Shown here: piece after piece, positions 18,325 to 39,607 of the stretch
How positions within the stretch are numbered: position 1 is the stretch's first letter
How the letters are laid out: each line of letters opens with the position of its first letter
NCBI GenBank assembly: GCA_017398585.1
Contig: JAFQFS010000156.1
Span: 33,259-97,258 of the forward strand
Direction of reading: 5' to 3'
DNA from: Clostridia bacterium
Lineage (GTDB): Bacteria > Bacillota > Clostridia > Oscillospirales > CAG-272
DNA length: 64,000 nucleotides
The notes under the pieces: generated by a model
Database searches by the model: none
Told to the model about the DNA's origin: nothing
The model's input: the letters and a program-made list of their open reading frames with translations, nothing else
Made by a program: the position numbers and the translations under genes

Positions 18325-18353
18325 TTGATAAATCCCCGGATTTGTGGTAAAAT
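18325..18353 (+). promoter_or_regulatory. sigma-A type promoter for the AAA-ATPase/PD-(D/E)XK gene
   Basis: TTGATA (18325-18330), 17-nt spacer, TGgTAAAAT with TAAAAT at 18348-18353. Confidence 0.5.
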
Positions 18354-18399
18354 AATACCGGATACTTACGAATGGATTATGACAGGAGGTGTACAGAGA

Positions 18400-19986
18400 A
18401 TGGGCAGTTATTTGAACCCGGGAAGTAAGGACTTTCAGGAAAGTCTGAATTCAAAAATCTATGTGGACAAAACCCTGCTGATCGAACGGACGAACGAACT
18501 GGTAAATACCAGACAGAAATTCGTCTGTCTGAGCCGTCCGCGCCGGTTCGGGAAATCCATGGCGGCAGATATGCTGGCGGCATATTACAGCTGCGGGGAA
18601 GATACCTCCGCAATGTTTGAAAATCTGAAAATAGCGAAAGCGGAATCGTTCAAAGAACACCTGAATCGGTATGATGTCATCAAGCTCAATATGCAGCTGT
18701 TCCTCAGTACCACACACAACGTAGAAGAAATGCTGGAAGTATTGCAGAAACGCGTTGTGAGAGAGCTGAAACGAGCTTATCCGGATATTGTTGACGGAGA
18801 ATCACTGATCTGGGCAATGACAGATGTCTACACGGAGACCAACCGCCCGTTTGTGATCCTGATTGACGAATGGGACTGCCTGTTCCGGGAATATGCTCAC
18901 AATACCGACGCGCAGAGGATGTATCTGGATTTCCTGCGTGCATGGCTGAAGGATCAGAATTACGTGGCACTTGCCTATATGACGGGAATCCTGCCGATCA
19001 AGAAATACGGTACCCATTCCGCGTTGAATATGTTTACGGAGTATTCCATGGCGGATTCTGGAAGTTTAGCGGAGTTTTTCGGATTCACGGAGGCGGAAGT
19101 AAAGGTGCTCTGTGAAGAATACAGTATGGATTTTGACGAAGCCCGTTCATGGTATGACGGATATGATCTTGTAACGAACAGTGCAAATGGGAATATTCAT
19201 TATTCCATGTACAGCCCCAAGTCTGTGGTAGAAGCGATGCTGCGTCACAAGTACGGTCCCTACTGGAATCAGACGGAAACCTACGAGGCACTGAAAGTCT
19301 ATATCCAGATGAACATGGACGGTCTGAAGGATGCGGTTGTCCGGATGCTTGCCGGAGAGAGTGTTGAGATCAATACCGGCACGTTCACGAACGACATGAC
19401 CACATTTGCGAGGAAGGACGACGTGCTGACCCTGCTGGTACATCTGGGATATCTGACTTATGATTCCGAAAAATGTACGGTCTCCATACCCAATAAGGAA
19501 GTCGCCCAGGAATACGTCAATGCGATCAGCACGATGGACTGGAGTGAGGTAACACGATCCGTGGAAGCGTCACGGAAACTGCTGCAGTCCTTATGGGATA
19601 TGGATGCGGAAGCGGTGGCGAAAGGAATCGATCAGGCGCACGACGAGATATCGATTCTGCAGTACAACGATGAGAATTCACTGAGCTGTGTGATCGGACT
19701 GGCATTCTATTCCGCAAAAGATTACTATACAATCGTCCGTGAAATGCCGAGCGGTAAGGGATTTGCCGACATTTTCCTGATTCCGCGGCCGAAGCATATG
19801 GATAAACCTGCGGTAGTGATTGAGCTGAAGAAGGATAAGGATGCACATGGAGCCATCGATCAGATCAGGCAGAAGAACTATGTGAAAGCACTGGAAGACT
19901 ACAAGGGAAATCTGTTGCTGGCGGGGATCAATTACGATAAGGAAAAGAAACACACCTGTGTGATTGAGAAGTGGATTTGTGAATGA
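18400..19986 (+). CDS. predicted AAA-ATPase (AAA-ATPase_like) fused to PD-(D/E)XK nuclease-like domain (PDDEXK_9 type)
   Basis: Start moved to the ATG at 18400 (AGGAGG RBS). The protein begins MGSYLNPGSKDFQESLNSKIYVDKTLLI...CLSRPRRFGKSM, with the family's P-loop-like RRFGKS. The C-terminus has GKGFADIFLIP...PAVVIELKKDKD, a D...ExK nuclease motif. Confidence 0.7.
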   Translation: MGSYLNPGSKDFQESLNSKIYVDKTLLIERTNELVNTRQKFVCLSRPRRFGKSMAADMLAAYYSCGEDTSAMFENLKIAKAESFKEHLNRYDVIKLNMQLFLSTTHNVEEMLEVLQKRVVRELKRAYPDIVDGESLIWAMTDVYTETNRPFVILIDEWDCLFREYAHNTDAQRMYLDFLRAWLKDQNYVALAYMTGILPIKKYGTHSALNMFTEYSMADSGSLAEFFGFTEAEVKVLCEEYSMDFDEARSWYDGYDLVTNSANGNIHYSMYSPKSVVEAMLRHKYGPYWNQTETYEALKVYIQMNMDGLKDAVVRMLAGESVEINTGTFTNDMTTFARKDDVLTLLVHLGYLTYDSEKCTVSIPNKEVAQEYVNAISTMDWSEVTRSVEASRKLLQSLWDMDAEAVAKGIDQAHDEISILQYNDENSLSCVIGLAFYSAKDYYTIVREMPSGKGFADIFLIPRPKHMDKPAVVIELKKDKDAHGAIDQIRQKNYVKALEDYKGNLLLAGINYDKEKKHTCVIEKWICE

Positions 19987-27179: not shown

Positions 27180-27555
27180 ATGACACCGGACAAAACCGTA
27201 TTCACATGGGACAACTGCGAGGCAGAAGTCTCCGTCACCCCCGTATCCGCCGAAAACGGCATTTATCTCTACCGGATCACCGTGGATTATCCCGAAAAAC
27301 GCTTTCCCGAGCGGATCAAACTGCGGTGGTTCACGGAATTTGACGATATTTTCTCCACATGGAACCCCGGCGGACGGTTTTCGCATGAACTGATGCCGTC
27401 GTGGCGTCCCGTGGATACCCGTTCCCGTTCTGCGGCAGGCGCACCGGTCTTTTCCATGATGGCGAAGGGCAGCGAAAACCGCTGTACCTTCGCTCTGGCT
27501 GATGCCGCAAATCCCGTCCGTCTCACCGGCGGCATGGAGGAACGCAGCGGTTTCA
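27180..27555 (+). pseudogene. N-terminal fragment of a glycoside-hydrolase-like protein, truncated at about 27.54-27.56 kb
   Basis: MTPDKTVFTWDNCEAEV...RSRSAAGAPVFSMMAKGSENRCTFALADAANPVRLTGGMEERSGFM reads like a real protein. The ORF then runs antisense into the AlbA_2 remnant and becomes low-complexity. Confidence 0.4.
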
Positions 27556-28000
27556 TGAAAAGTCAGCTGCTGCTGGAGAGAACGTGCGGCTTCATAGCTG
27601 TCCCCGCTGGTCTCTTTAATCATGGCAAGAATGGCACTTTCCGTGGCAGGAACCGTGGATGCTCCCTGACGTACATAGATTCCTTCCGGGCGGATCCTTT
27701 TCCGGCGAGATAATAAGGACGTGCCGTGCCGCGCTGTACCGTGATTACAACAACATTTTTTCCATCCATGGTCTCATTTCGGCATTCGGTAAACATGGTT
27801 ACATCGGGACGGATTGCATCGCGTATCGCACTTGCCGCACGGAGCATTGTACTGTCCACATTTTCCACGCCGCAGACACTTCCGTCGTCGTTGATTCCTA
27901 TATAGATCGATCCGCCGTCGCAGTTAGCAAATGCGGTGACGGTGTTTTTAATTGCATCGATATATTCCCGTTTCAGCTCGGTTGTTTTGTTTTCAGTCAT
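27533..28000 (-). pseudogene. AlbA_2 (Schlafen-like) domain protein, frameshifted and 3'-truncated
   Basis: MTENKTTELKREYIDAIKNTVTAFANCDGGSIYIGINDDGSVCGVENV...VQRGTARPYYLAGKG. After a 1-nt slip at the T-run 27698-27701 the reading continues as IRPEGIYVRQGASTVPATESAILAMIKETSGDSYEAARSLQQQLTF and then ends at the junction. Confidence 0.6.
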
Positions 28001-28176
28001 GCGTTCAGATCCCTTTATAATAATGATTATCAAGTATATAAGCAAGATGTTTTGTGAAATTTTTGTGGCGGATAAAGGGCAGAATTCAGAAAAAACAATT
28101 CCAACCGATCTCTCCTGCTATAAACCCTCCGACGTATGCTATAATAAAAACAAACACCAAACAGGAGAACCCTATT

Positions 28177-29274
28177 TTGCTTACTATACAGAATACCCAC
28201 AACACCGCTGTCATCTATGCCGATACCATCGACAGCAGTACCGAAGGAATGCTCCGCGAATTCTGCGGACTTCCGCTTTCCGCAGACAGCAGAATCCGCG
28301 TTATGCCGGATGTTCATGCCGGAAAAGGCTGTGTGATCGGTTTGACGATGACCGTCACCGACTGCGTCGCGCCCGGGCTGATCGGCGTGGACATCGGCTG
28401 CGGAATCCTTGCGGTCCGGCTGGATGCGAAACGTTTGGATCTGCAGAAACTGGACAAGCTGATCCATGAAAAAATTCTGGCGGGACGAAATGTCCGTACA
28501 AAACCGCATCGTTTTGCGGAACAGGCGGAACTGGAACGGCTGTTGTGTTACCGTCACATTCAGGCGGACAAAGCTCACGCAAGTATCGGCACCCTCGGCG
28601 GCGGAAATCACTTTATCGAAGTTGACCGCAGCGGGGACGGTTCGTACTGGCTGATCGTTCACAGCGGCAGCCGTCATCTCGGCGCGGAAACGGCGAATTT
28701 CTATCAGAGAGAGGCGTATCGGCAGGATGACAGCGTTCCATACGAATTCGCCTGTCTGACCGGCGAGGGTATGACGGCATATCTGCACGATCTGTCGGTC
28801 GTGCAGGCGTTTGCATCGCTCAACCGTCGGGCGATTGCGGATGAAATTGTCCGGGGAATGAAGGCGGATGTTGCCGAAACGGTCGAGTGTGTCCACAATT
28901 ACATTGATACCGATGCGATGATCCTGCGGAAAGGCGCGATTTCCGCGAAGGAAGGAGAACGTGTGGTGATTCCGATGAACATGAGGGACGGCTGTTTGAT
29001 CGGTATCGGGAAGGGAAATGCGGAGTGGAATTACTCGGCACCGCATGGTGCCGGACGGATCATGAGCCGCGCGGAGACGAGAGATCATTTTACGCTGTCG
29101 CAGTACAAGAAGGAGATGAAGGGGATTTATACGACGTCGGTTTCAAGGGAGACGCTGGACGAAAGCCCGATGGCGTATAAGCCGATGGAGGCGATTGTCG
29201 GGAAAATCGGTGAGACGATGGATGTGATCGAGAGGATTACACCGGTGTATAACTTTAAGACGGGGGAGGAATAA
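28177..29274 (+). CDS. rtcB: RNA 3'-phosphate/2',3'-cyclic phosphate ligase RtcB
   Basis: MPDVHAGKGCVIG, GGGNHFIEV, HSGSRHLG and SAPHGAGR motifs. I prefer the TTG start at 28177, 8 nt after AGGAGA. The track ORF starts at 28054 with a low-complexity extension. Confidence 0.85.
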   Translation: MLTIQNTHNTAVIYADTIDSSTEGMLREFCGLPLSADSRIRVMPDVHAGKGCVIGLTMTVTDCVAPGLIGVDIGCGILAVRLDAKRLDLQKLDKLIHEKILAGRNVRTKPHRFAEQAELERLLCYRHIQADKAHASIGTLGGGNHFIEVDRSGDGSYWLIVHSGSRHLGAETANFYQREAYRQDDSVPYEFACLTGEGMTAYLHDLSVVQAFASLNRRAIADEIVRGMKADVAETVECVHNYIDTDAMILRKGAISAKEGERVVIPMNMRDGCLIGIGKGNAEWNYSAPHGAGRIMSRAETRDHFTLSQYKKEMKGIYTTSVSRETLDESPMAYKPMEAIVGKIGETMDVIERITPVYNFKTGEE

Positions 29275-29330
29275 AGAGGAGGACAGTACCCGCCAAACTT
29301 TCTATTTTCAACTACATATTATCTCTATGA

Positions 29331-29364
29331 AACCCAGCCAATCCGGCTGGGTTATTTTCATTTT
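29331..29364 (+). terminator. rho-independent terminator between rtcB and the amidoligase gene
   Basis: Arms AACCCAGCC (29331-29339) and GGCTGGGTT (29345-29353), then ATTTTCATTTT. Confidence 0.55.
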
Positions 29365-29382
29365 ACGAGGTAATATTTTATT

Positions 29383-30483
29383 ATGACCACCCCCACCTGC
29401 ACACTCTGCAGCCACAACACCCCCGCCGAGGATATCCTCGAATTCGCCGACCATCTCCTCTGTCCCGACTGCGTGACCCGCTACACTACCGAATGCCAAT
29501 GCTGCGGCGAACGCATCTGGTTCGCCGACAACGCCGGTTCCCACGGCTTCCCGCTGTGTCAGGGCTGCTACGAACAGCACTATACCCACTGTACCTCCTG
29601 CGGCTGTATCCTCCATCTTGCTGAAGCCTATTATCCCGACGATGATGACGATCCCTACTGTCGCTCCTGTTACTCCGCACGTGCCGAATCCCAGAGCATC
29701 AACGACTACAACTACAAGCCTGATCCCATTTTCTATGGAACCGGCGAACGATTCTTCGGTGTGGAACTGGAGATCGACGGTGCAGGCGAATGTACTTCCA
29801 ATGCAGAACGCATCCTCGAAACCGCACACCGCAACGGTTTGGAATACATCTACTGCAAGCATGATGGTTCGCTCGAAGACGGTCTGGAGATCGTCACGCA
29901 CCCGATGTCGCCTATGTTCCACCAGTACGAAATGCCGTGGCAGGCGATCCTCGACAAAGCCGTCCGCCTCGGCTATACCTCCCACCAGAGTGGTACCTGT
30001 GGTCTGCATATCCACGTCAACCGTACCGCATTCGGCGATACCGAAGCCGAACAGGATGAAGTTATCGCAAGAATCCTGTACCTCTTCGAACGTCATTGGG
30101 AGGAGCTTCTCAAATTCAGCCGCCGTACCCGCCGTCAGCTTGACCGCTGGGCTGCCCGTTACGGTTACAAGGACAAACCGAAAGACATCCTCGAACACGC
30201 CAAGAAAGGCAGCGCAGGACGCTACACCTGTGTGAACCTGACAAACTTCCACACCATCGAATTCCGCATTTTCCGCGGTACCCTCAAATACAACACCCTC
30301 ATCGCCACGCTGCAGATGGTCAACCACATCTGCGACGCGGCGATTCTTTTGTGTGATGAGGAAATGCGCAACCTGTCGTGGAGCGACTTCATGATGGGGA
30401 TCACCGAACCGGAGCTGATCCAGTATCTCAAGGAACGTCGGCTGTACATCAACGACAAAATCGAAAGCGAGGAGGAAGTGTAA
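29383..30483 (+). CDS. Amidoligase_2 family enzyme (glutamine-synthetase-like fold) with Cys-rich zinc-ribbon N-terminal extension
   Basis: 366 aa. FGVELEIDG, KHDGSLEDGLEIVTHPM, CGLHIHVN and TIEFRIFRGTL match the amidoligase core. The first ~96 aa carry six CxxC-type pairs. Confidence 0.75.
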   Translation: MTTPTCTLCSHNTPAEDILEFADHLLCPDCVTRYTTECQCCGERIWFADNAGSHGFPLCQGCYEQHYTHCTSCGCILHLAEAYYPDDDDDPYCRSCYSARAESQSINDYNYKPDPIFYGTGERFFGVELEIDGAGECTSNAERILETAHRNGLEYIYCKHDGSLEDGLEIVTHPMSPMFHQYEMPWQAILDKAVRLGYTSHQSGTCGLHIHVNRTAFGDTEAEQDEVIARILYLFERHWEELLKFSRRTRRQLDRWAARYGYKDKPKDILEHAKKGSAGRYTCVNLTNFHTIEFRIFRGTLKYNTLIATLQMVNHICDAAILLCDEEMRNLSWSDFMMGITEPELIQYLKERRLYINDKIESEEEV

Positions 30484-31397
30484 TGTGCTGCTTATTCGGA
30501 ATCATTGACTATGGCAGAAGTCTGAGTATGTCTCAGAAGGAGCATATCCTGACTGTCCTCTCAAGGGAATGCGAACTTCGCGGTGTTGATGCCACAGGGA
30601 TCGCTTACAATGGTCAGGAGAGACTTCATATTTACAAACGTCCACTTCCTGCGCATAAAATGAAATTCCGCGTACTGTCCGATACCAATATCATCATGGG
30701 ACACACACGGATGACCACGCAGGGAAGTGAGCAGAAAAATCGGAACAATCATCCGTTTGGTGGGACAACTTTTGCGTTGGCGCACAACGGTATCATTGAT
30801 AATGACTGAGAGCTACGGAAGAGAGAGAATCTTCCTTCGACGGATGTAGAAACCGACAGCTATATTGCGGTACAGCTTCTCGAACGTTCGGATACCTTGA
30901 CCTTCGACAGTCTGCGCGATATGGCGGACCTGCTGAGCGGAACGTTCACGATCACCGTATTGGATGATTGCGACAACCTCTATTTCATCCGTGGCAGTAA
31001 TCCGATGTGCCTGTATCACTGGGAGAATCATGGACTGTACCTGTATGCCTCCACGGAAGAGATATTACTCGGTGCGCTGAGAAATTTGCGGTTCTCGCTT
31101 GGTAAGCCGAAGGAAGTTCCTCTCAGAGCAGGCGATATCCTTCGTATTGACAAATCTGGGGAGCTGACCTACAACAACTTTACGATGAAGCCGATGTACA
31201 CCCGTCCGTATAGTTTTGCTCTGTGGGATTACTATCCGTCCTGCATCAAAGCGGAAGAATCCTATATGGATGATCTCTATTCCATCTCAGGGGCATTCGG
31301 CTATACACGGGAGGACATCGACGCACTGTTGGAAGAAGGAATCACACCGGAGGAAATCGAAGAGTATTTCTACGGCATGGTTCCCTATGAGCTGTGA
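30483..31397 (+). pseudogene. class II (Ntn) glutamine amidotransferase-like protein interrupted by in-frame TGA at 30807-30809
   Basis: MCCLFGI... provides the Cys2 nucleophile. The ATG overlaps the amidoligase stop (TAATG at 30481-30485). ...LAHNGIIDND-TGA-ELRKRENLPSTDVETDSYIAVQLLE... continues in the same frame to 31397. Confidence 0.65.
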
Positions 31398-31491
31398 AGG
31401 GAGGTGAACGGATGGACAATATGTGTATTGGCGTGCCGCCGCGTCGTTAGGATCGCCGCGGAAAATGGCCCATGCCAGAATGAGAAACATA

Positions 31492-31528
31492 ACCCTATTG
31501 CCATACTTTTACGGTATGCTAATAGGGT
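31492..31528. promoter_or_regulatory. imperfect inverted repeat upstream of the recombinase gene (candidate recombinase binding/crossover or autoregulatory site)
   Basis: ACCCTATTGCCATAC (31492-31506) faces GGTATGCTAATAGGGT (31513-31528), 22 nt before the ATG at 31550. Confidence 0.4.
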
Positions 31529-31549
31529 GTACTTCAATGGGAGGAATTT

Positions 31550-32107
31550 ATGAAAATCGGATACATCAGATGCAGCAGTTCTGATCAGAATACCGCACGG
31601 CAGGAAGTGCTGATGCAGGAACTGGGTGTGGAACAGGTCTACATTGACCGCATGAGCGGTAAGAACACCGATCGACCGGAATTACAACGGATGATGAACT
31701 ACGTCCGCGAAGGCGATACGGTGATTGTGGAGTCCATCAGCCGGTTTGCGAGAAATACCCGCGACCTGCTGGAGCTGATCGATTACCTGAACCGCAAGAA
31801 TGTGGAATTTGTATCGAAGAAGGAAGTAATCGATACGTTAACTCCGACAGGAAAATTCATGTTGACAATCTTTGGTGCTGTCGCGGAGTTGGAACGCGAG
31901 TATATTTTGCATAGACAGCGCGAAGGTGTAGAGATTGCGAAAGCGAACGGTGTATATAAAGGAAGAAAGCCGATCGAACGGGAAAACTTCGCACAGGTTG
32001 TAACCCTATGGGAATCCGGCAGGATCACCGCAGTGGAAGCCATGAGGCGGCTGAATTTGAAGCCGAGCACGTTTTATCGGAAGGTCAGGAAGAGGAGAGG
32101 GGGATGA
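31550..32107 (+). CDS. small serine recombinase (resolvase/invertase family)
   Basis: 185 aa. MKIGYIRCSSSDQNTARQ carries the catalytic Ser. Also has the ESISRFARN and GAVAELEREYILHRQREG blocks and a C-terminal HTH (RITAVEAMRRLNLKPSTFYRK). Confidence 0.9.
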   Translation: MKIGYIRCSSSDQNTARQEVLMQELGVEQVYIDRMSGKNTDRPELQRMMNYVREGDTVIVESISRFARNTRDLLELIDYLNRKNVEFVSKKEVIDTLTPTGKFMLTIFGAVAELEREYILHRQREGVEIAKANGVYKGRKPIERENFAQVVTLWESGRITAVEAMRRLNLKPSTFYRKVRKRRGG

Positions 32108-32250
32108 CAGAAAGCACTTCATTCCCCTTCGGATCCCTTCTGAGCTTATGTAAACTCTTACTTGCACTCTAACCATATTGTAAAGGAAATGTTGTCTATG
32201 AATGACAGTCCTGAAAAAATATTATTTCAATCCCAAAAAGGAGAAAAATT

Positions 32251-32826
32251 ATGGTAATCGAAAATGAAAGCAGATTAACTGCAGTAAGAGAAGGCAGAGT
32301 ACTGGATGGGAAAATTCAGATTGAAGGATCCAGTGAAACCTTTACTCTCGTATTATCCAACAAAGAAGTTGTTGTTCCGGAAATTATGGGACCAGATGCA
32401 TATGGAGAGATTGATCCTATCCATGTGTCCGACAGAGAATACGGAAAAGTACAGTTTTATAATGACACCGAAGAATGTTTGTATAAAGGGGACAGAGGAA
32501 ACATTCTTTATTTCAGCGCAAGAAGTACTTCCTGTAATACCCCTTGCGGCGATATGAATGAGCTTATCCATTTTGTTTTATACGGATCGCTTTCAGAGGA
32601 ACTGAAAGACGCTTCGCATAGGGTTGTCTGGGTGAGCGATGTGGCGAACTGTACCAGAGACTATGTGATGATTCAGGACGAGGCGTTTTATTCGAAAGTG
32701 AAATCGCTTTATGCGCCGGAAGTTTGTTGGTATATCCACAATTATGTCAAGGATGCATACGGAGACTTTCCGATCGGCTTTGGAGCCGGCATCATTCGCG
32801 ATGGAGTATTTGAAAGTCTGTGCTGA
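32251..32826 (+). CDS. hypothetical protein
   Basis: 191-aa ORF with AAGGAG RBS and AT-rich codon usage. I recognise no motif. Confidence 0.5.
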   Translation: MVIENESRLTAVREGRVLDGKIQIEGSSETFTLVLSNKEVVVPEIMGPDAYGEIDPIHVSDREYGKVQFYNDTEECLYKGDRGNILYFSARSTSCNTPCGDMNELIHFVLYGSLSEELKDASHRVVWVSDVANCTRDYVMIQDEAFYSKVKSLYAPEVCWYIHNYVKDAYGDFPIGFGAGIIRDGVFESLC

Positions 32827-33001
32827 AACTTGTGAGATGGGGGCAGGGGGATTCTTGCCTCCTTTCTCTCTGTACAGCGTTGATTTTTTGCTGAGCAAAC
32901 AAAAAATCGGTTGTATAGTATATATAAAAAGTGAATTCACTTTTTTAAAAGGGAACATGGGAGTAAACATAATTGTAAATCAATAAAGGAGGTCATTGCT
33001 A

Positions 33002-33358
33002 ATGAATGACAACAACAAAACCGAAATGATCCGGGCTCTGAGAAACCGTACCACAAAGCTTCAGCGGGAAGGAGACTACTGGGATCAGGAAGAAATCGAA
33101 AAACTTAAAGATATGTTTAACGAAGGTGTAGGCATCAGTGACATTGCACTGCAGCTTCAGAGAACCGAGCCTGCGGTACAGCAGCAGATCGAGAAACTGG
33201 ATCTGTACCGTCGGAAGGACAGACCGCAGCGCAGGAAACAGAATAAGAAACGCTGTGAGTATGCGGACAACTGCCCTCATACGCCGGAGACCTGTCCGAA
33301 GTTCCGGAAATGCAGAGAGGAAGGAATGGAATGTTCAGAGAGTACGAAGAACTGCTGA
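33002..33358 (+). CDS. hypothetical small DNA-binding-like protein with Lys/Arg-rich and Cys-rich tail
   Basis: ATG at 33002, 9 nt after AAGGAGG. WDQEEIEKLKDMFNEGVGISDIALQLQRTEPAVQQQIEKL resembles a SANT/Myb- or sigma-r4-like helix-turn-helix. The tail is RRKQNKKRCEYADNCPHTPETCPKFRKC. Confidence 0.45.
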   Translation: MNDNNKTEMIRALRNRTTKLQREGDYWDQEEIEKLKDMFNEGVGISDIALQLQRTEPAVQQQIEKLDLYRRKDRPQRRKQNKKRCEYADNCPHTPETCPKFRKCREEGMECSESTKNC

Positions 33359-33522
33359 CCGCACAGGAAGCCGCTGAAATGCTGAGAGTCGGACATAACG
33401 CGATCTACGCTTTGCTGAAGAGCGGGAAGCTGAAAGGGTTCCGAGTAGGTCGGGTGTGGAAGATACCTAAGGAGGCGGTGGAGGAATATGTGCGCGATAG
33501 CGCGAAGCTGTGGAAGAAATGA
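33331..33522 (+). CDS. excisionase-family (MerR-like) helix-turn-helix protein
   Basis: MFREYEELLTAQEAAEMLRVGHNAIYALLKSGKLKGFRVGRVWKIPKEAVEEYV. Overlaps the preceding gene by 28 nt. Confidence 0.7.
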   Translation: MFREYEELLTAQEAAEMLRVGHNAIYALLKSGKLKGFRVGRVWKIPKEAVEEYVRDSAKLWKK

Positions 33523-33526
33523 GATA

Positions 33527-33555
33527 CCCCCGAGGACTGTGGATGTCCTCGGGGG
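33527..33555 (+). terminator. hairpin after the Xis-like gene
   Basis: Arms CCCCCGAGGAC (33527-33537) and GTCCTCGGGGG (33545-33555), then AGTTT. Confidence 0.5.
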
Positions 33556-33813
33556 AGTTTGCACGGATGGTAGAAAAGCCGTGATAAGCATAGATATATG
33601 AAGTAAATCTTTAACAATGCAGCAAACAATAAGATAAAATAATATGGGCGCCCCAGGGCAAGAGTTGCAGAAACTCTTGCCCCTTGCGTAAACTATAGAG
33701 GAGGAAATACCTATATGTAGATATACACTGATAGACTATCTATACATCATTAATATACAAATATAGTATATATAAACAATACAACTGACATGAAAAACAG
33801 GAGGTACAAAATC

Positions 33814-34335
33814 ATGGCAATTTTTAAGACAGCAAATAAGAAAGGCAAGTATCATGATGATGAGGCAAGATATGATATCCTCAGATATATTCTGCAGGAA
33901 TACAAGCTTCCGCATCGGTGTTTTATGGGATATAATTTCCCTGGACTGATGATTGAGGATCCGACGAGAGCAGCTGCCTATTATGCAGCATGTATGGATA
34001 CAACTGCGGCAAAATTTAACAAGAGCAATGGTGTAAAGGTACGGCAGTTCATTGTGAGTTTTGCTTCGCAGGAACTGGAAGATTACAGAATTGCGAATGA
34101 GATCGCTCACAAATTGTCTGCTTTCTATAGGATGGAATATGAGATGGTATATGCGGTTCATGAAGATACGGGAAATCTGAACATCCATATTGTAATCAAT
34201 TCGGTCAGTTATGTGGACGGACATCGCTATGGCGGAACCAGAAAAGAACATCATGCTTTTTTGAACTACGCCAAGGCTGTACTTCGTCCCTATGGGATTA
34301 ATTTATGGTATCAGAGCAATAAGGAAACAGTTTAA
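33814..34335 (+). CDS. short relaxase/mobilisation-nuclease-domain-like protein
   Basis: ATG at 33814 after AGGAGG. AVHEDTGNLNIHIVINSV matches the relaxase HxDxxxxxHxH histidine motif. At 173 aa it is much shorter than typical MobA/VirD2 relaxases. Confidence 0.5.
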   Translation: MAIFKTANKKGKYHDDEARYDILRYILQEYKLPHRCFMGYNFPGLMIEDPTRAAAYYAACMDTTAAKFNKSNGVKVRQFIVSFASQELEDYRIANEIAHKLSAFYRMEYEMVYAVHEDTGNLNIHIVINSVSYVDGHRYGGTRKEHHAFLNYAKAVLRPYGINLWYQSNKETV

Positions 34336-34370
34336 AAGAATACAGGGTATTTGCTGTAAACTCACAGAAA

Positions 34371-34421
34371 TTCAAGCAGATAGTATAGCTTTGAACAAGC
34401 CGCTGTCTGCTTGAATTTTTT
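34371..34421 (+). terminator. rho-independent terminator after the relaxase-like gene
   Basis: Arms TTCAAGCAGA (34371-34380) and TCTGCTTGAA (34406-34415), then TTTTTT. Confidence 0.6.
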
Positions 34422-34437
34422 ATACCGGAGGATGAGT

Positions 34438-34779
34438 ATGTCCAGCCCTACCATCACCGTTTTACTGGTGAACCCTTATGAAGTTCCGAAACCGATCGAA
34501 ATCCCCGCAGAACTGTCCGTCTATCAGAAACTTGTCGGAGGTACGATCCAGGCAATTTATCCCTCAATGGAAGACCCGATCGCACTGATCTGCAACGACG
34601 AGGGCAAGTTGCTCGGACTCCCGTGGAACCGTCCGCTGTTCGATGAAGATGGGAACCTGTACGACATTATTGCAGGAACCTTCTTCGTTGCCGGCCTGAC
34701 GAAGGACGACTTTGGTTCCCTCTCGCCGGAGCTGATCCAGAAATATACTGCGGTGTTTGCAACGGTATTTCTGATCTGA
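34438..34779 (+). CDS. DUF3846 domain protein
   Basis: MSSPTITVLLVNPYEVPKPIEIPAELSVYQKLVGGTIQAIYPSMEDPIALICNDEGKLLGLPWNR...IIAGTFFVAGL is a typical DUF3846 pattern of conjugative and mobilisable elements. Confidence 0.7.
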   Translation: MSSPTITVLLVNPYEVPKPIEIPAELSVYQKLVGGTIQAIYPSMEDPIALICNDEGKLLGLPWNRPLFDEDGNLYDIIAGTFFVAGLTKDDFGSLSPELIQKYTAVFATVFLI

Positions 34780-34807
34780 ATTCCAGCTTCTCAAAAGGCC
34801 GAAACGA

Positions 34808-34844
34808 TTAAAGAGGAAATGTTTGTGAAGCATTTCCTCTTTAA
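34808..34844. terminator. hairpin between convergent DUF3846 and ATPase genes
   Basis: 14-bp arms TTAAAGAGGAAATG (34808-34821) and CATTTCCTCTTTAA (34831-34844). Confidence 0.5.
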
Positions 34845-35049
34845 TGGGACTATACATTGAATGTTTTTTGGTAGTATACCGGTTCAGATAAGGCAGATTC
34901 GGGTGGTTCGGATGCATTGATCTGAGAAGGGGGATTGGGAGAGGGAAGATTATCTTCGGAAAGAGCCGTTGAACTGTCGATCGGGATCGTCGGATGAGGT
35001 GAGCATGAGAAAAGGAACTGTCCTTTGGAAAGCTGCTCATCCAGGATTT

Positions 35050-37767
35050 TCAGAAAATTATTTTTTCTTTTTGGGTATTACCGAGCAGACCGGCAATTTT
35101 TTTATTGCCTTCCTTTCCCGAATCGAAGAATATACGTACACCGGCTTGCTTGACACAGGTGTTGAACAAAGCACCGTTTTCGCTGCTGACCGTTTGAGAC
35201 GCAAGCCAGAAAGAAACTCCGTATTTTCGTTCTTCACGTAAAATTTCATTGATGATGGAGTTTTTACTGGTGTCAAGATGCTGGAATTCATCAATAACCA
35301 GTATGAGCGGATTTTTATTGGCGGCGTCAGAGGAGGTTTGTGTTTCATTCTTTTTTTGCCAGCGATACAAATCTGTCATGAAAGCTGCAGCCAGTTTCGA
35401 TCGCAGACTGTCGGACTCTGCACAGTTTCTGAAATCGAGTATTACTGTTTTGCCGCGATAATCATTCCAGCGAAGCGGTTTCCCGGAGAAAAAGTGGTTT
35501 TCAATAATGTCGTTCCACATTCTTTGTACAGGAACGGGAGTCTTTATGGATGGCGGGGTATCCGTGGTATCATAGCCGGACAGAGTCTTCTCGTATTTTT
35601 CTTTGTATTGATTGAAGTTTTTTGCAAAGGTGTGGAGAGTGTATACATCGCTGTGGTTCTGGGCGTACGCCTTATAGCTTCCCTGAATGATTGATTGGTA
35701 GATATCTCTGATGCCATACATTTTTTGGAGCAGATAAAAAACAGTTTCTCCATTATACAATTCATGGTTCTCCAGATCTATGCCCGGGTTATCCCCTGCG
35801 ATATCTATGATGACAGAATTGTCAGCGGAGGGCAAATCCCCCTGAAGGTGAATGACTACGGTGGTTAACTTTTGTTCGCCTGCTTGTTTTATTAATTTGG
35901 AAAGGAAGACGCTTTTACCGCAGCCGCTTTGTCCGGTGATCAGCAGATGTTTGTTCGGGACTCTTTCGTCCTCAAAATCCCAATAGACATTCGAGGAACA
36001 GTTCATATCCAGTCCTAATTTGAAATGGGACGTTTGAGGCTTTATATACGGAGGAGCTTGTGTGGGATCTTGCTTTTTTTCTTCGGCGGGGAAACGGATA
36101 CCGTATAATGCAATATCATGGTGACAGGAAATTGTATCCTCGTTGTTGATGTGTACAGTATATCTTTTTTGGTACGAGGCAGGATTGATATTGCTGGATT
36201 CCAGAATCCCTTTTTCGGAAAGCAGCTGTAATACCTCTTTTATGTGGTTCTGACCGGGAATATTCTGAAGTACACTTCGGAGAGCGGGCAGGTTGATACT
36301 CCAGACCGTATTATTTTCAGAGTCAGTACTTTCTAAAATATACGGCAGCATTTTATCCAAATAAGTGATGTACGGAAGACACTCGTTGACCGGGGCATTC
36401 AGCCGTTTGTATACGGGGATGGTATGATTATCCGCCAGTGTTTTCAGTGTATCAAGGAACAGCTGTGGAGTAACCGTTCTGACTTTGCTGATTTTGGGCA
36501 GATAGGCATCCAGCAGAATTGCTGTATTGCAGGAGTCGATGCAATTCGGGTCATCGTGAACATTTAACGGGTTCGTAATCTTTAATGAGTAACACATATC
36601 TTCCCAGGCAGTGTACAGTGTAAAAAAAATGATTTTGATAGGGGATCGGGAAAACGCATCATGCTGCAGGGCATGTTGGAATGCTGTTGGAAAGTATCTG
36701 TAAAAGTGATTGAAGTATTCCTGAAGTTCGGCAGAAGATGTCGGTGTAGAGAAACTGAGGTGAGAGGCAGAGTAACTGAAGGGAGAGAAGGATTCGGGAT
36801 CAAGAAAAATATGATAGAAGGATTTTTCCGGATGGGATTGTTCAGTGAAAAGGATTGGAACAGCAAAGTTTTCCTCAATAATTGGAAAGGAATTTGGGAT
36901 TGTTGGGAAGAGAGGAGTGCGCTGAATGGTAACAATCTTATTTACAATGGATTCAAGTTTTCCGATTGTTGAATTCCGGATACTTGGAACCTCTTCAACG
37001 ATAAAGGGAATATCATTGGTATTATTATATACTTCACAAAACTCTTTCTTGGTGGAACTGGTCAAAACACTTTCACAGACAGTTGCAGGGAAAAAGCGTG
37101 CTATGATATCAGCGCGTAAATTTGGATCTGGGATATCAAGGCACAGGATTTTGTCAGACTGCAGCTGACCGAAAAGGGAGGCAGTGAAACAGTAATGATA
37201 GTAGAGGAACAGGAAAATACGGGTATCGCGATCCAGAATCTGATTGAACGCATAGGCAATTTTCTGGCAGGTGTCAACCAAAGAGTTGTTCATGGGTACG
37301 AGATTTGCAGGTTGAATGTGCTTTGAAAATTCAGCAGGATCCTTTTCTGCGAAAGTTCTCATGAAGCGATTAATAGTACCGATGTAGTTACAGGAATTGA
37401 TCTTGTCTATCCTTTGCCATCCACCCTGATAGGGGCAGACATATTGTTTCTGTTGAAGGTTGGAGAGCGCGTTGCGAAGCTGTTCACTTGACTGTGCCGG
37501 AGAATTTATGGGGAAAACCAGGGCGTCTGGGTTTCCGATTCGAAGTTTGTATTGGTCAACAAGAAGGGAGAAAAAGGAATCGGATAGATATTCTTCCTGA
37601 GAGATTTTAATGATATGGCAGGGGTAGGCGAGTTTTTCTTCTTGGGAAGAGGTGTAAGTTTTTCCTGAAACGGATAAAAGATAAACAGGGGGGTGATGGT
37701 ATAATTTATCATAAGTTGTATAAACGACGTTTGATATAAACAGAACATCCTGCTCCTTGTTATCCAA
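35050..37767 (-). CDS. 905-aa protein: uncharacterised ~600-aa N-terminal region fused to HerA/FtsK-type P-loop ATPase
   Basis: Walker A GQSGCGKS is encoded at 35911-35934. Walker B PLILVIDEFQ is at 35281-35310. EERKYGVSFWLASQTVSS follows, as in the HerA/DUF87 (R/K)KxG...SQ block. The gene is strongly AT-rich compared with the flanking chromosome. Confidence 0.7.
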   Translation of the reverse strand: MDNKEQDVLFISNVVYTTYDKLYHHPPVYLLSVSGKTYTSSQEEKLAYPCHIIKISQEEYLSDSFFSLLVDQYKLRIGNPDALVFPINSPAQSSEQLRNALSNLQQKQYVCPYQGGWQRIDKINSCNYIGTINRFMRTFAEKDPAEFSKHIQPANLVPMNNSLVDTCQKIAYAFNQILDRDTRIFLFLYYHYCFTASLFGQLQSDKILCLDIPDPNLRADIIARFFPATVCESVLTSSTKKEFCEVYNNTNDIPFIVEEVPSIRNSTIGKLESIVNKIVTIQRTPLFPTIPNSFPIIEENFAVPILFTEQSHPEKSFYHIFLDPESFSPFSYSASHLSFSTPTSSAELQEYFNHFYRYFPTAFQHALQHDAFSRSPIKIIFFTLYTAWEDMCYSLKITNPLNVHDDPNCIDSCNTAILLDAYLPKISKVRTVTPQLFLDTLKTLADNHTIPVYKRLNAPVNECLPYITYLDKMLPYILESTDSENNTVWSINLPALRSVLQNIPGQNHIKEVLQLLSEKGILESSNINPASYQKRYTVHINNEDTISCHHDIALYGIRFPAEEKKQDPTQAPPYIKPQTSHFKLGLDMNCSSNVYWDFEDERVPNKHLLITGQSGCGKSVFLSKLIKQAGEQKLTTVVIHLQGDLPSADNSVIIDIAGDNPGIDLENHELYNGETVFYLLQKMYGIRDIYQSIIQGSYKAYAQNHSDVYTLHTFAKNFNQYKEKYEKTLSGYDTTDTPPSIKTPVPVQRMWNDIIENHFFSGKPLRWNDYRGKTVILDFRNCAESDSLRSKLAAAFMTDLYRWQKKNETQTSSDAANKNPLILVIDEFQHLDTSKNSIINEILREERKYGVSFWLASQTVSSENGALFNTCVKQAGVRIFFDSGKEGNKKIAGLLGNTQKEKIIF

Positions 37768-38131
37768 TTTATGGTTTACCTGGACGTATCCGTTTAAAAA
37801 GTAATATACATAATATCAATATAACACCTAAATTATAAAATTTAATTTAAATAAATTATAGCATAAAAAAATGGTTTTAATCAATATTTAAAAGTTTAAA
37901 TTAGGTAATTGAATTTTAATTTATAAAAGTTAAAAACAGTTTACTTGTGTAAAAACATGTAAAATTACATGTGTAGTCTGATGCGCGATTCTGTGTATGG
38001 AGTATTTGTTTTGAAGGTTATTTATACAGAACAGCCGAATCCATGGCATCCTCATTTGCCCCCATGTTACTTTTTACGCAAAAAAAGAACCTTTTCAAGC
38101 GAATCTCACTTAAAAAGGTTACTTTTTCGAT

Positions 38132-38205
<74 letters not shown>

Positions 38206-38228
38206 ATATTCAGTTTATCAACAGAAGA

Positions 38229-38314
38229 TGCCGGACACCGGGTTCGAACCGGTACGATACTTACGTATCACGGGATTTTAAGTCCCGGGCGTCTGCCAAT
38301 TCCGCCACTCCGGC
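38229..38314 (-). tRNA. tRNA-Leu (UAA), class II
   Basis: GCCGGAGTGGCGGAATTGGCAGACGCCCGGGACTTAAAATCCCGTGATACGTAAGTATCGTACCGGTTCGAACCCGGTGTCCGGCA. It has a long variable arm (GATAC/GTATC) and a perfect T-arm. Position 7:66 is G-G. Confidence 0.85.
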
Positions 38315-38353
38315 ACATTCTCCCGCATAGGGGCTTCCCTCTGTTGCTCCATC

Positions 38354-38382
38354 ATTATATCACATTGTTTCGGCTTTGTCAA
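38354..38382 (-). promoter_or_regulatory. consensus sigma-A promoter driving the tRNA-Leu/tRNA-fMet pair
   Basis: The minus strand reads TTGACA (38377-38382), a 17-nt spacer, then TGaTATAAT with TATAAT at 38354-38359. The tRNA-Leu 5' end is about 40 nt downstream. Confidence 0.7.
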
Positions 38383-38463
38383 TACCTTTTTTGAAAAAGA
38401 TTCAGGATTTTTCTGAAGATTTTATCGAATTGCGATCTCTGTGAAAAAATCCGAAAAACCCCC

Positions 38464-38492
38464 TTGCGAATTTCCTTCATTTCCATTATACT
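38464..38492 (+). promoter_or_regulatory. candidate promoter for the URO-D-like gene
   Basis: TTGCGA (38464-38469), 17-nt spacer, TATACT (38487-38492). Confidence 0.4.
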
Positions 38493-38539
38493 AAGAACAG
38501 AAAGATAAACGTTATCCAAGAACGAAAGGATGAAAAACT

Positions 38540-39607
38540 ATGGCAGAAATGACAGTAAAGGAACGCTTTGCGCGGATGTACGCACACAAGGAAGCGGACC
38601 GGGTACCGATTATCGACAGTCCGTGGGCGGGGACGATCCGCCGCTGGCAGAACGAAGGAATGCCGGAAGGAATGGACTGGAGAGAATTTTTCGGGACCGA
38701 TAAGACGGCAGGGATCGGTGTGGATATTACGCCGCGCTATCCCTACGAAGTGCTTGAAGAAGACGAAACGTCGATCACGTACAAGACGAACTGGGGTGTG
38801 ACGATGCGTCACAACAAGGGTCTGGACTCGACGCCGGAATTCCTCGACTACACGGTAACCGATCCGGCGGCATGGGAAGACTGCAAGCGCCGGATGTACG
38901 AAGGGGAAGGACGTATCGACTGGAATTACCTGAAGAAAGCGTATCCGAAGTGGCAGGCGGAGGGGCAGTGGATCACAGCGAACTTCTGGTTCGGCTTTGA
39001 CGTGACGCACTCCTGGATGATGGGCACGGAAAACCTGCTGATCGCGATGTACGAAGAGCCGGAGATGGTACAGGATATGTTCAACACGTACCTCGACCGC
39101 TGCATCGACCTGTTCGGGCAGATCTGGGACGCGGGCTACCACTTCGACTGCATCAGCTGGCCGGACGACATGGGCTACAAGGGCACGACGTTCTTCTCGA
39201 ACGAAATGTACCGCGAAATGCTGAAGCCCGTTCACAAGCGCGCGGTTGACTGGGCGCACAATCACGGCATCTACGCGCATCTCCACTCCTGCGGCAACAT
39301 CATGAGCCGCATGGACGACCTGATGGACATCGGTCTCGACGCTTTGAACCCGCTCGAAGTCAAAGCGGGCATGGAACCCCTGACCCTGAAGGAAAAATAC
39401 GGCGACAAGCTCGTCCTTCACGGCGGCGTCAACGCCGTTCTCTGGGACGACAAGGAAGCCATCATCGAAGAAATTCGCCGTGTCATCCCCGCTCTCAAGG
39501 AAAACGGCGGCTACATCTTCTCCTCCGACCACTCCGTCCCCAATTCCGTAAGTCTTGAGAACTTCCGTGCGATCGTGGAAGAAATCAAGATTGTCGGGAA
39601 GTATTGA
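38540..39607 (+). CDS. uroporphyrinogen decarboxylase (URO-D) family protein, second paralog
   Basis: 355 aa. MAEMTVKERFARMYAHKEADRVPIIDSPW..., HLHSCGN and LNPLEVKAGM blocks are typical of URO-D/MtaA-like TIM barrels. Confidence 0.7.
   Translation: MAEMTVKERFARMYAHKEADRVPIIDSPWAGTIRRWQNEGMPEGMDWREFFGTDKTAGIGVDITPRYPYEVLEEDETSITYKTNWGVTMRHNKGLDSTPEFLDYTVTDPAAWEDCKRRMYEGEGRIDWNYLKKAYPKWQAEGQWITANFWFGFDVTHSWMMGTENLLIAMYEEPEMVQDMFNTYLDRCIDLFGQIWDAGYHFDCISWPDDMGYKGTTFFSNEMYREMLKPVHKRAVDWAHNHGIYAHLHSCGNIMSRMDDLMDIGLDALNPLEVKAGMEPLTLKEKYGDKLVLHGGVNAVLWDDKEAIIEEIRRVIPALKENGGYIFSSDHSVPNSVSLENFRAIVEEIKIVGKY

Follow-up and report, generated by a model that had tools for sequence, protein, structure and literature searches.

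A conserved amidoligase–amidotransferase gene pair on a mobile-element remnant in a Clostridia genome

Results

The amidoligase and amidotransferase genes form an obligate module

The stretch of DNA analysed here (the window, 64,000 nucleotides (nt) of contig JAFQFS010000156.1 from a Clostridia bacterium) carries three genes in a row on the + strand according to its open reading frame (ORF) listing: rtcB (28177-29274), an intact gene for an RNA 3'-phosphate ligase; an intact amidoligase gene (29383-30483), whose product joins a zinc-ribbon array and an acidic linker to a domain of the glutamine synthetase (GS)/YbdK fold; and a 304-codon gene for a class II amidotransferase-like protein of the N-terminal nucleophile (Ntn) type (30483-31397), which is interrupted by an in-frame TGA. 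A first-pass annotation, made from the sequence alone, had grouped all three as ligation/amidation cargo of a mobile element. Our comparison divides this group: the amidoligase and the amidotransferase are a real, obligate two-gene module, and RtcB lies outside it.

The three family assignments held up in profile hidden Markov model searches, all with scores above the Pfam cut-offs. RtcB (PF01139) scored 195.8 bits against a cut-off of 27 in a match that spans the catalytic core (1.9e-57; phrog_1075, 1e-121). The amidoligase matched Amidoligase_2 (PF12224) over residues 155-312 with 35 bits against a cut-off of 22, and phrog_16683 at 2e-94. For the amidotransferase, the 108-codon N-terminal piece ahead of the TGA (30483-30806) reached 28.4 bits for GATase_6 (cut-off 27), and P0122, an intact homologue at 94% identity, scored 45.5 bits for the same family and also matched GATase_7.

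To define how far the pair extends, one genome per species was scanned, which gave 573 amidoligase relatives, and 80 of these loci were kept and joined by locus L001 to make 81; a scan of IMG/VR contigs gave 211 relatives, from which 80 viral loci were examined. The amidotransferase gene lies directly 3' of the amidoligase gene in 78 of the 81 genome loci, and the three exceptions are a deletion (L002), a contig end and L066. An Ntn partner is present in about 72 of the 80 viral loci, counting 35 close and 37 divergent partners. Viral loci whose amidoligase identity is at least about 47% have the same amidotransferase partner, while 37 of the 44 divergent viral loci encode, nearly always as the next gene downstream, a partner that starts with 'MCI...'. 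These proteins have no Pfam match, yet profile-profile comparison with hhalign found them homologous to the amidotransferase (95.7% probability, E 1e-8), with the motifs DGAG, HxR..T.G, N.HPF, AHNG and SDT aligned. The co-occurrence beyond this genome that the first-pass annotation had expected is thus borne out, and homologues in core metabolic operons were found neither among the 81 genome loci nor by neighbourhood clustering.

The two genes are also tightly coupled. In the window the amidoligase TAA (30481-30483) overlaps the amidotransferase ATG (30483-30485) in the sequence TAATG (30481-30485), and an AGGAGGA lies 7-13 nt 5' of this ATG. Across 119 loci the distance from stop to ATG is -1 nt in 57, 0-4 nt in 60 and more than 100 nt in two, so that the proposed translational coupling, with a gap of -1 to +4 nt, recurs in 117 of them; the partner gene starts with ATG-TGY in all 119. 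On large viral contigs, tandem duplication has affected the amidoligase and its Ntn partner jointly, two or three times over. Purifying selection on both genes is strong, with ratios of nonsynonymous to synonymous substitution rates (dN/dS) of 0.03-0.10 overall and 0.06-0.10 for the amidoligase. Each protein belongs to a large family, with 5917 homologous clusters at 90% identity for the amidoligase, whose homologues carry PF12224, and 5368 for the amidotransferase. No near-identical DNA was found among PLSDB plasmids and INPHARED phages.

A zinc-ribbon amidoligase and a stand-alone amidotransferase

The amidoligase had been described as Cys-rich, and it indeed contains 12 invariant cysteines, arranged as six CxxC pairs between residues 6 and 96. 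In the structure model this part consists of three CxxC...CxxC zinc ribbons in a LIM-like array, with predicted local distance difference test (pLDDT) scores above 90 (mean of the whole model, 83), and Foldseek matched it to LIM domains; a PDB sequence search with the amidoligase returned marginal LIM matches only. The catalytic domain follows the acidic linker and carries the invariant motifs ELE, KHDGSL, HxH and RxFRGT, with the conserved residues Glu128/Glu130, His209/His211 and Arg295/Arg298. Its Foldseek matches were YbdK/GCS2 (E 2e-5), GS (E 8e-4) and Dop/PafA. From the conserved Glu, His and Arg motifs, the protein is predicted to be an ATP-dependent carboxylate-amine ligase. YbdK/GCS2 and GS, the best structural matches, share with it the acidic, His and Arg motifs of carboxylate activation, but identity is about 15%, the NCBIfam YbdK score is 16.6 bits against a cut-off of 176, and the window protein adds the zinc ribbons and an obligate partner.

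The number of ribbons varies within the family. Viral amidoligase homologues have from zero to six in tandem, and some of the Ntn partners have one at the C-terminus (loci with variable ribbons or tandem pairs: L129, L132, L139, L142, L157, L168 and L171). DUF3846, a domain whose gene also occurs near the pair (see below), forms an N-terminal fusion with the amidoligase in P0007, P0060 and P0098, which represent clusters with hundreds of members, and is a candidate partner or substrate of the amidoligase. A PDB sequence search with DUF3846 found no relative.

The amidotransferase of the window begins with MCC, and Cys2, which had been put forward as the Ntn nucleophile, is invariant in 22 of 22 aligned sequences. 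Arg76, Asp125 and Gly103 are also invariant and Asn102 is nearly so; these positions align to Arg73, Asp123 and Asn98-Gly99 of GlmS. With a model of P0122 (pLDDT 81), all of the top 50 Foldseek hits were glutaminase domains of GlmS/GFAT, PurF or asparagine synthetase. The glutaminase domains of GlmS, PurF and AsnB have the same Ntn fold, with Cys1, Arg, Asn-Gly and Asp in common, whereas the protein studied here is a stand-alone protein of 304 aa with no fused synthase domain, and its NCBIfam scores (72 bits for GlmS; 19.5 bits for EgtC, against a cut-off of 218) are all far below the equivalog cut-offs. Its C-terminus consists of a disordered, variable linker and a conserved three-helix tail (FGYT.EDID.LL.EG.TPEEIE..FY).

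A nonsense codon interrupts the amidotransferase gene of the window

As the first-pass annotation had noted, the amidotransferase gene is interrupted. A single in-frame TGA lies at 30807-30809 (codon 109), and the same frame is open on both sides of it up to 31397. Close relatives encode Arg at this position, with CGC in L001, and the lesion is a CGN-to-TGA nonsense change that has become fixed in the lineage. The locus is present at at least 99.9% identity in several independent metagenome assemblies, with the TGA wherever the position is covered (ERZ28019142, ERZ28654015); since independent assemblies carry it, the change can be taken as real and fixed, and an error of sequencing or assembly was ruled out. 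Recoding of the stop codon, for instance as selenocysteine, was also ruled out, because position 109 varies, with Arg in the close relatives, the gene's own stop is a TGA, and intact 304-aa relatives exist at 90-94% identity.

We further rejected the possibility of a long-standing pseudogene, as dN/dS between the window copy and intact copies is 0.05-0.065 both before and after the stop, no higher than among the intact copies themselves, which indicates that the nonsense mutation is recent. The truncated product would stop after Asn102/Gly103. Because the residues beyond these, including Asp125, are removed, the amidotransferase of the window is dead, a recent pseudogene next to an intact amidoligase. 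In the sister locus L002, an independent deletion of about 770 bp (window positions 30496-31264) removes the amidotransferase and leaves the amidoligase in place.

The leader hairpin belongs to the amidoligase and rtcB to the flank

The amidoligase gene is preceded on the + strand by a leader (29309-29382) that is kept across loci and consists of a 9-bp GC-rich hairpin with a T-rich tail (29331-29353) and a ribosome-binding site, GAGG. The hairpin had been interpreted as a terminator that marks the 3' end of the rtcB transcript, an assignment that we revise. About 70 nt of leader are kept with the amidoligase in L001 (1290-1361), L088 (8830-8900), L090 and L092, although the genes upstream differ. 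A GC-rich hairpin with a T-rich tail was found at the same place in 40 of 102 loci, against a background of 19 in 585 random windows from these loci. Where present, it mostly ends 23-28 nt ahead of the amidoligase ATG, and the stem sequences are unrelated. Since loci with a divergent upstream gene have the hairpin as well, it is placed in the operon's 5' leader, where it may act as an insulator or attenuator. In Rfam searches, the leader and the element matched only tRNAs and one transfer-messenger RNA (tmRNA), and no other RNA family.

The rtcB gene itself is intact; the motifs MPDVHAGKG, DIGCG, GGGNHF, HSGSRHLG and PHGAGR align to RtcB of P. horikoshii and the metal-binding and guanylylated His sites are kept. 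Its link to the pair is rare, however, with an rtcB within 10 kb in one of the 81 genome loci (L076, at 4.6 kb) and in none of the 80 viral loci. The arrangement of the window recurs in a near clade (amidotransferase 90-94% identical), where rtcB and a divergently transcribed, full-length AlbA_2/HATPase_c_4 gene (446-462 aa in L088, L089 and L092) lie 5' of the pair in L088, L089/L090 and L092. In L001, which has an HTH_3 gene upstream, homology to the window starts at 29304, 30 nt past the rtcB stop. In L089/L090, a 4.4-kb insertion of four genes lies between the positions that correspond to 29276 and 29307, that is, between rtcB and the amidoligase leader. A protein 90% identical to the RtcB of the window occurs in L178, where the amidoligase is absent nearby. 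In addition, synonymous divergence (dS) between the same genome pairs is 0.22-0.46 for rtcB, compared to 0.50-0.70 for the amidoligase/amidotransferase pair, a difference of about two-fold.

RtcB is therefore a flanking neighbour beside an insertion hot spot and stands outside the amidoligase module, given the linkage in only one of 81 loci, the break in homology just after its stop, the 4.4-kb insertion, the leader kept with the amidoligase, the 90%-identical RtcB free of the pair and the lower dS. The claim that it is a third member of the cargo did not survive these comparisons. In L177, an RtcB with 65% identity stands among housekeeping genes and is followed by a type I-C cas operon; the state of L088 could reflect an insertion between rtcB and an ancestral operon of this type, which is only suggestive, as the Cas3 proteins are 35% identical, compared to 65% for RtcB.

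Several rearrangements touch this flank. The four-gene block of L089/L090 (4467-8399) is on the opposite strand and encodes proteins of 462, 443 and 332 aa (one with a faint WYL match) and one further gene; it may be an insertion of the defence-island type. The AlbA_2/Schlafen-like gene of the window (27541-28045, - strand; Pfam SLFN_AlbA_2, 1.2e-19) is truncated to a 5' piece, the first 126-141 codons, and homology to L088, L089 and L092 starts abruptly at 27541; this cut is a rearrangement separate from the boundary between rtcB and the pair. Further upstream, an AAA-ATPase_like/PDDEXK_9 gene (18325-19986, + strand) has 87% DNA identity to a gene that is two genes away from AlbA_2 in L088, which suggests that this genome gained its carbohydrate gene block at 20-27.5 kb by insertion between the AAA-ATPase_like/PDDEXK_9 gene and AlbA_2.

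The pair lies on the remnant of a small mobile element

Downstream of the pair, on the + strand, lie a small serine recombinase gene (resolvase; 31550-32107; Pfam Resolvase, 2.7e-44) and an element backbone of five ORFs (32251-34779) that, by their Pfam matches, recur beside the pair in other loci: a 191-aa ORF and genes for a GcrA-like protein (32996-33358), an excisionase-like HTH_17 protein (33310-33522), a short protein with a MobA/VirD2-type relaxase domain (33790-34335) and DUF3846 (34411-34779). The right part of the element is occupied by a P-loop ATPase gene of the TraD/VirD4/HerA type on the - strand (35050-37767; Pfam AAA_22 and TrwB_AAD_bind). This ORF has 905 codons and is called as a protein of 747 aa in public assemblies; its similarity to TraD/VirD4 is weak, and its matches to DndH/HerA/CedB-like proteins in PADLOC and NCBIfam are below the cut-offs. 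Beyond it, the genes for tRNA-Met and tRNA-Leu (38129-38315, - strand) were found by ARAGORN and by the Rfam tRNA family.

The same genes accompany the pair elsewhere. Among the 81 genome loci, a resolvase lies nearby in 54 (downstream, and the commonest third gene), HTH_17 in 44, DUF3846 in 37, a GcrA-like protein in 17 and a relaxase in 13, and unsupervised clustering of the neighbourhoods brings in tyrosine integrases, large serine recombinases, a D5_N/DUF5906 primase-like protein, HTH_3, DUF960 and WYL proteins. The pair is thus carried by small integrative mobilizable elements of Oscillospiraceae, and also by phages, such as Marvin with gp105/gp106.

In the window, the left edge of element homology falls at about 29277-29309, and the homology shared with related elements ends at 37350. 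The element is a mosaic, since 33243-37350 is 97-98% identical to L088 and L002 and 27541-32590 only 87-90%; the G+C content falls from about 0.55 to about 0.42 across 32-38 kb. The element adjoins tRNA-Met and tRNA-Leu, and a related element, L050 (1-75), adjoins the 3' end of a tmRNA gene. These borders are consistent with integrase-mediated insertion, and tRNA-Met/tRNA-Leu is likely the former integration target. The window element has no integrase, whereas its relatives have tyrosine or serine integrases, and a search for direct repeats of at least 10 nt shared by its left (29250-29400 or 27400-27700) and right (37000-38560) edges found none. The 8-9 kb from about 29.3 to 37.4 kb can fairly be described as a remnant of an integrative mobilizable element between a chromosomal rtcB and tRNA-Met/tRNA-Leu: the resolvase, HTH_17, short relaxase, TraD-like ATPase and neighbouring tRNA genes point to the class of element, and it is called a remnant because it has neither an integrase nor a flanking direct repeat. 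In this respect we agree with the first-pass annotation. Its suggestion of counter-defence gained no direct support, as neither RtcB, nor either member of the pair, nor DUF3846 matched a system component catalogued in PADLOC.

Discussion

A glutamine-dependent amidating enzyme is the preferred reading

The reading that we prefer, though with less than even confidence, is that the pair is a two-subunit, glutamine-dependent amidating enzyme. The amidoligase and amidotransferase would form a 1:1 complex, in which the zinc-ribbon array would hold the target, probably a protein or other macromolecule, with DUF3846 as a candidate. The amidoligase would phosphorylate a carboxyl group on the bound target, and the amidotransferase would hydrolyse glutamine and give the ammonia that converts this carboxylate to an amide. 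Complex formation is suggested by the translational coupling, by the joint duplication of the two genes and by the C-terminal tail found on the amidotransferase, and a macromolecular target by the LIM-like array. An amidating enzyme is preferred because the amidotransferase is nearer to the ammonia donors GlmS, PurF and AsnB than to EgtC, and because targeting domains occur on either subunit.

Several observations weigh against this proposal. The Foldseek template modelling (TM) scores for the amidoligase are low, about 0.35, so that its family assignment depends on all lines of evidence together. In other Amidoligase_2 clades the partner is an AIG2/gamma-glutamyl-cyclotransferase (GGCT)-like protein, as in Tn6164 (orf22/orf23); such a partner is unable to supply ammonia and points instead to gamma-glutamyl-amide chemistry. 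The nearest structural relatives, YbdK/GCS2 and PafA/Dop, form or cleave gamma-glutamyl amides. EgtC and other stand-alone proteins of the class II amidotransferase type act as hydrolases. The amidotransferase has been lost twice with the ligase intact, a pattern that plain decay of remnants would also give. Finally, the accessible literature repeats predictions only and holds no biochemical data on any member and, as the first-pass annotation had stated, no experimentally defined substrate for the pair.

Alternative explanations

The main alternative is that the two enzymes write and erase, or process, a gamma-glutamyl tag, an explanation that we regard as possible but rather unlikely. Here the ligase would join the gamma-carboxyl group of Glu, or of a peptide ending in Glu, to an amine of the target, such as lysine or a polyamine, and the Ntn enzyme would be a thiol amidase that takes the gamma-glutamyl group off again or, like Dop with Pup, deamidates the substrate in advance. 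The proximity of the ligase domain to YbdK/GCS2, GS and Dop/PafA fits this scheme, as do the GGCT partner of other clades, which cleaves gamma-glutamyl amides, and phage clusters that unite an amidoligase, an amidotransferase, an ATP-grasp enzyme and GGCT. Arg76 and Asp125 suit a gamma-glutamyl group as well as free glutamine, and the occurrence, in some clades, of ribbons on both partners would be in keeping with a target that the two enzymes share. Comparative-genomics work of 2009 reportedly favoured this explanation, with the Ntn partner as a 'GAT-like thiol peptidase'. However, a co-translated writer and eraser in an obligate 1:1 module would cycle futilely if one reverses the other, which is why we favour a synthase with its glutaminase; the amidotransferase is much nearer to GlmS, PurF and AsnB than to EgtC, and the loci have no consistent tag-like small gene, as DUF3846 is present in only 37 of the 81.

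It is also conceivable, although we consider it doubtful, that the pair serves in element establishment or counter-defence, by amidating or tagging a specific host or element macromolecule on cell entry. Such an enzyme could act on a nucleic-acid base or on a protein, for which DUF3846 and factors of defence or replication are possible candidates, and the conserved, terminator-like leader hairpin would control it. If this were true, the pair would represent a new post-translational or nucleic-acid modification system in gut Clostridia.

An improbable explanation is a role in small-molecule or envelope chemistry, in which the pair would build or amidate a peptide-like metabolite, or amidate a carboxylate of the peptidoglycan stem peptide, with an effect on the cell surface (superinfection exclusion) or, as an auxiliary metabolic gene, on nitrogen metabolism. 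Such a role has been proposed for the phages phiEco32 and Marvin according to secondary sources that cite Iyer 2009 and Mageeney 2012. The pair is listed among auxiliary metabolic genes in phage papers. The known enzymes that amidate the envelope, such as MurT/GatD and those of the AsnB type, also combine an ATP-dependent ligase with a glutaminase. Nevertheless, an array of zero to six LIM-like ribbons and the fusion to DUF3846 look like macromolecule recognition, no transporter, membrane or cell-wall genes recur near the pair, and homologues are not in core metabolic operons.

Least credible, and largely refuted, is a single counter-defence unit in which repair of cleaved tRNA by RtcB would go along with modification of a target by the pair: rtcB does directly precede the pair in the window as well as in L088 and L092 (and, with the insertion, in L089/L090), the RtcB of the window scores far better in the phage family phrog_1075 (408 bits) than with its NCBIfam equivalogs, and one RtcB relative has a mobile-element context (L175), but the scarce linkage in genomes and viruses, the homology break and insertion site exactly between rtcB and the pair, a leader that moves with the amidoligase and not with rtcB, the pair-free RtcB, the dS difference and the zero PADLOC matches all speak against it.

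Relation to known systems

The amidating enzyme that we favour has partial counterparts among characterized and predicted systems. MurT/GatD, which forms the isoglutamine of lipid II, consists of a separate, co-expressed ATP-dependent ligase and glutaminase, and its ligase subunit binds zinc through a Cys4 site. It is an analogy to the proposed mechanism only, as the folds are unrelated (MurT has the Mur-ligase fold and GatD is a class I enzyme). PafA and Dop belong by fold to the same ligase superfamily and act on protein through the gamma-carboxyl group of Glu/Gln, but the window pair has no Pup-like or proteasome genes and its partner is an Ntn amidotransferase, not a ligase-fold paralogue. 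In EgtA/EgtC and PuuA/PuuD, a ligase of the GS/GCL fold is encoded with an amidotransferase-like hydrolase, as here; those pairs flank intermediate pathway enzymes, however, and the similarity to EgtC is weak, as shown by its NCBIfam score.

The closest match is the Amidoligase_2/GATase pair of Marvin (gp105/gp106) and LUZ24-like phages, which has the same two families in the same order, adjacent and on mobile DNA; the pair is also annotated in OM43 phages, and the LUZ24 cluster has additional COOH-NH2_lig and ATP-grasp genes. Iyer, Abhiman, Burroughs and Aravind are said to have predicted in 2009 that Amidoligase_2 enzymes pair with class II GATase-like genes on phages and mobile elements. 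Unlike the known phage pairs, the clade of the window has an N-terminal LIM-like array, a helical tail on the amidotransferase and a home in Oscillospiraceae elements with a resolvase and DUF3846. Within the portions of the literature that were accessible, these three features may be previously undescribed; they are variations within a known type of pair.

Significance

The first-pass annotation had singled out this locus as the best candidate in the window for an uncharacterised system. This is fair for the family, but the copy in the window is decaying and, because its amidotransferase is dead, adds little beyond another example. The comparison provides better handles, namely the intact relatives P0121-P0123 with their cognate ligases, the variable ribbon array, the fusion or adjacency to DUF3846 and the leader hairpin. 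The family is very large, with more than 5,000 clusters per protein at 90% identity, and is spread over Oscillospiraceae elements, mycobacteriophages and large uncultured phages. Identification of its substrate would account for a cargo that is common on the mobile elements of the gut, in a family that has been flagged since 2009.

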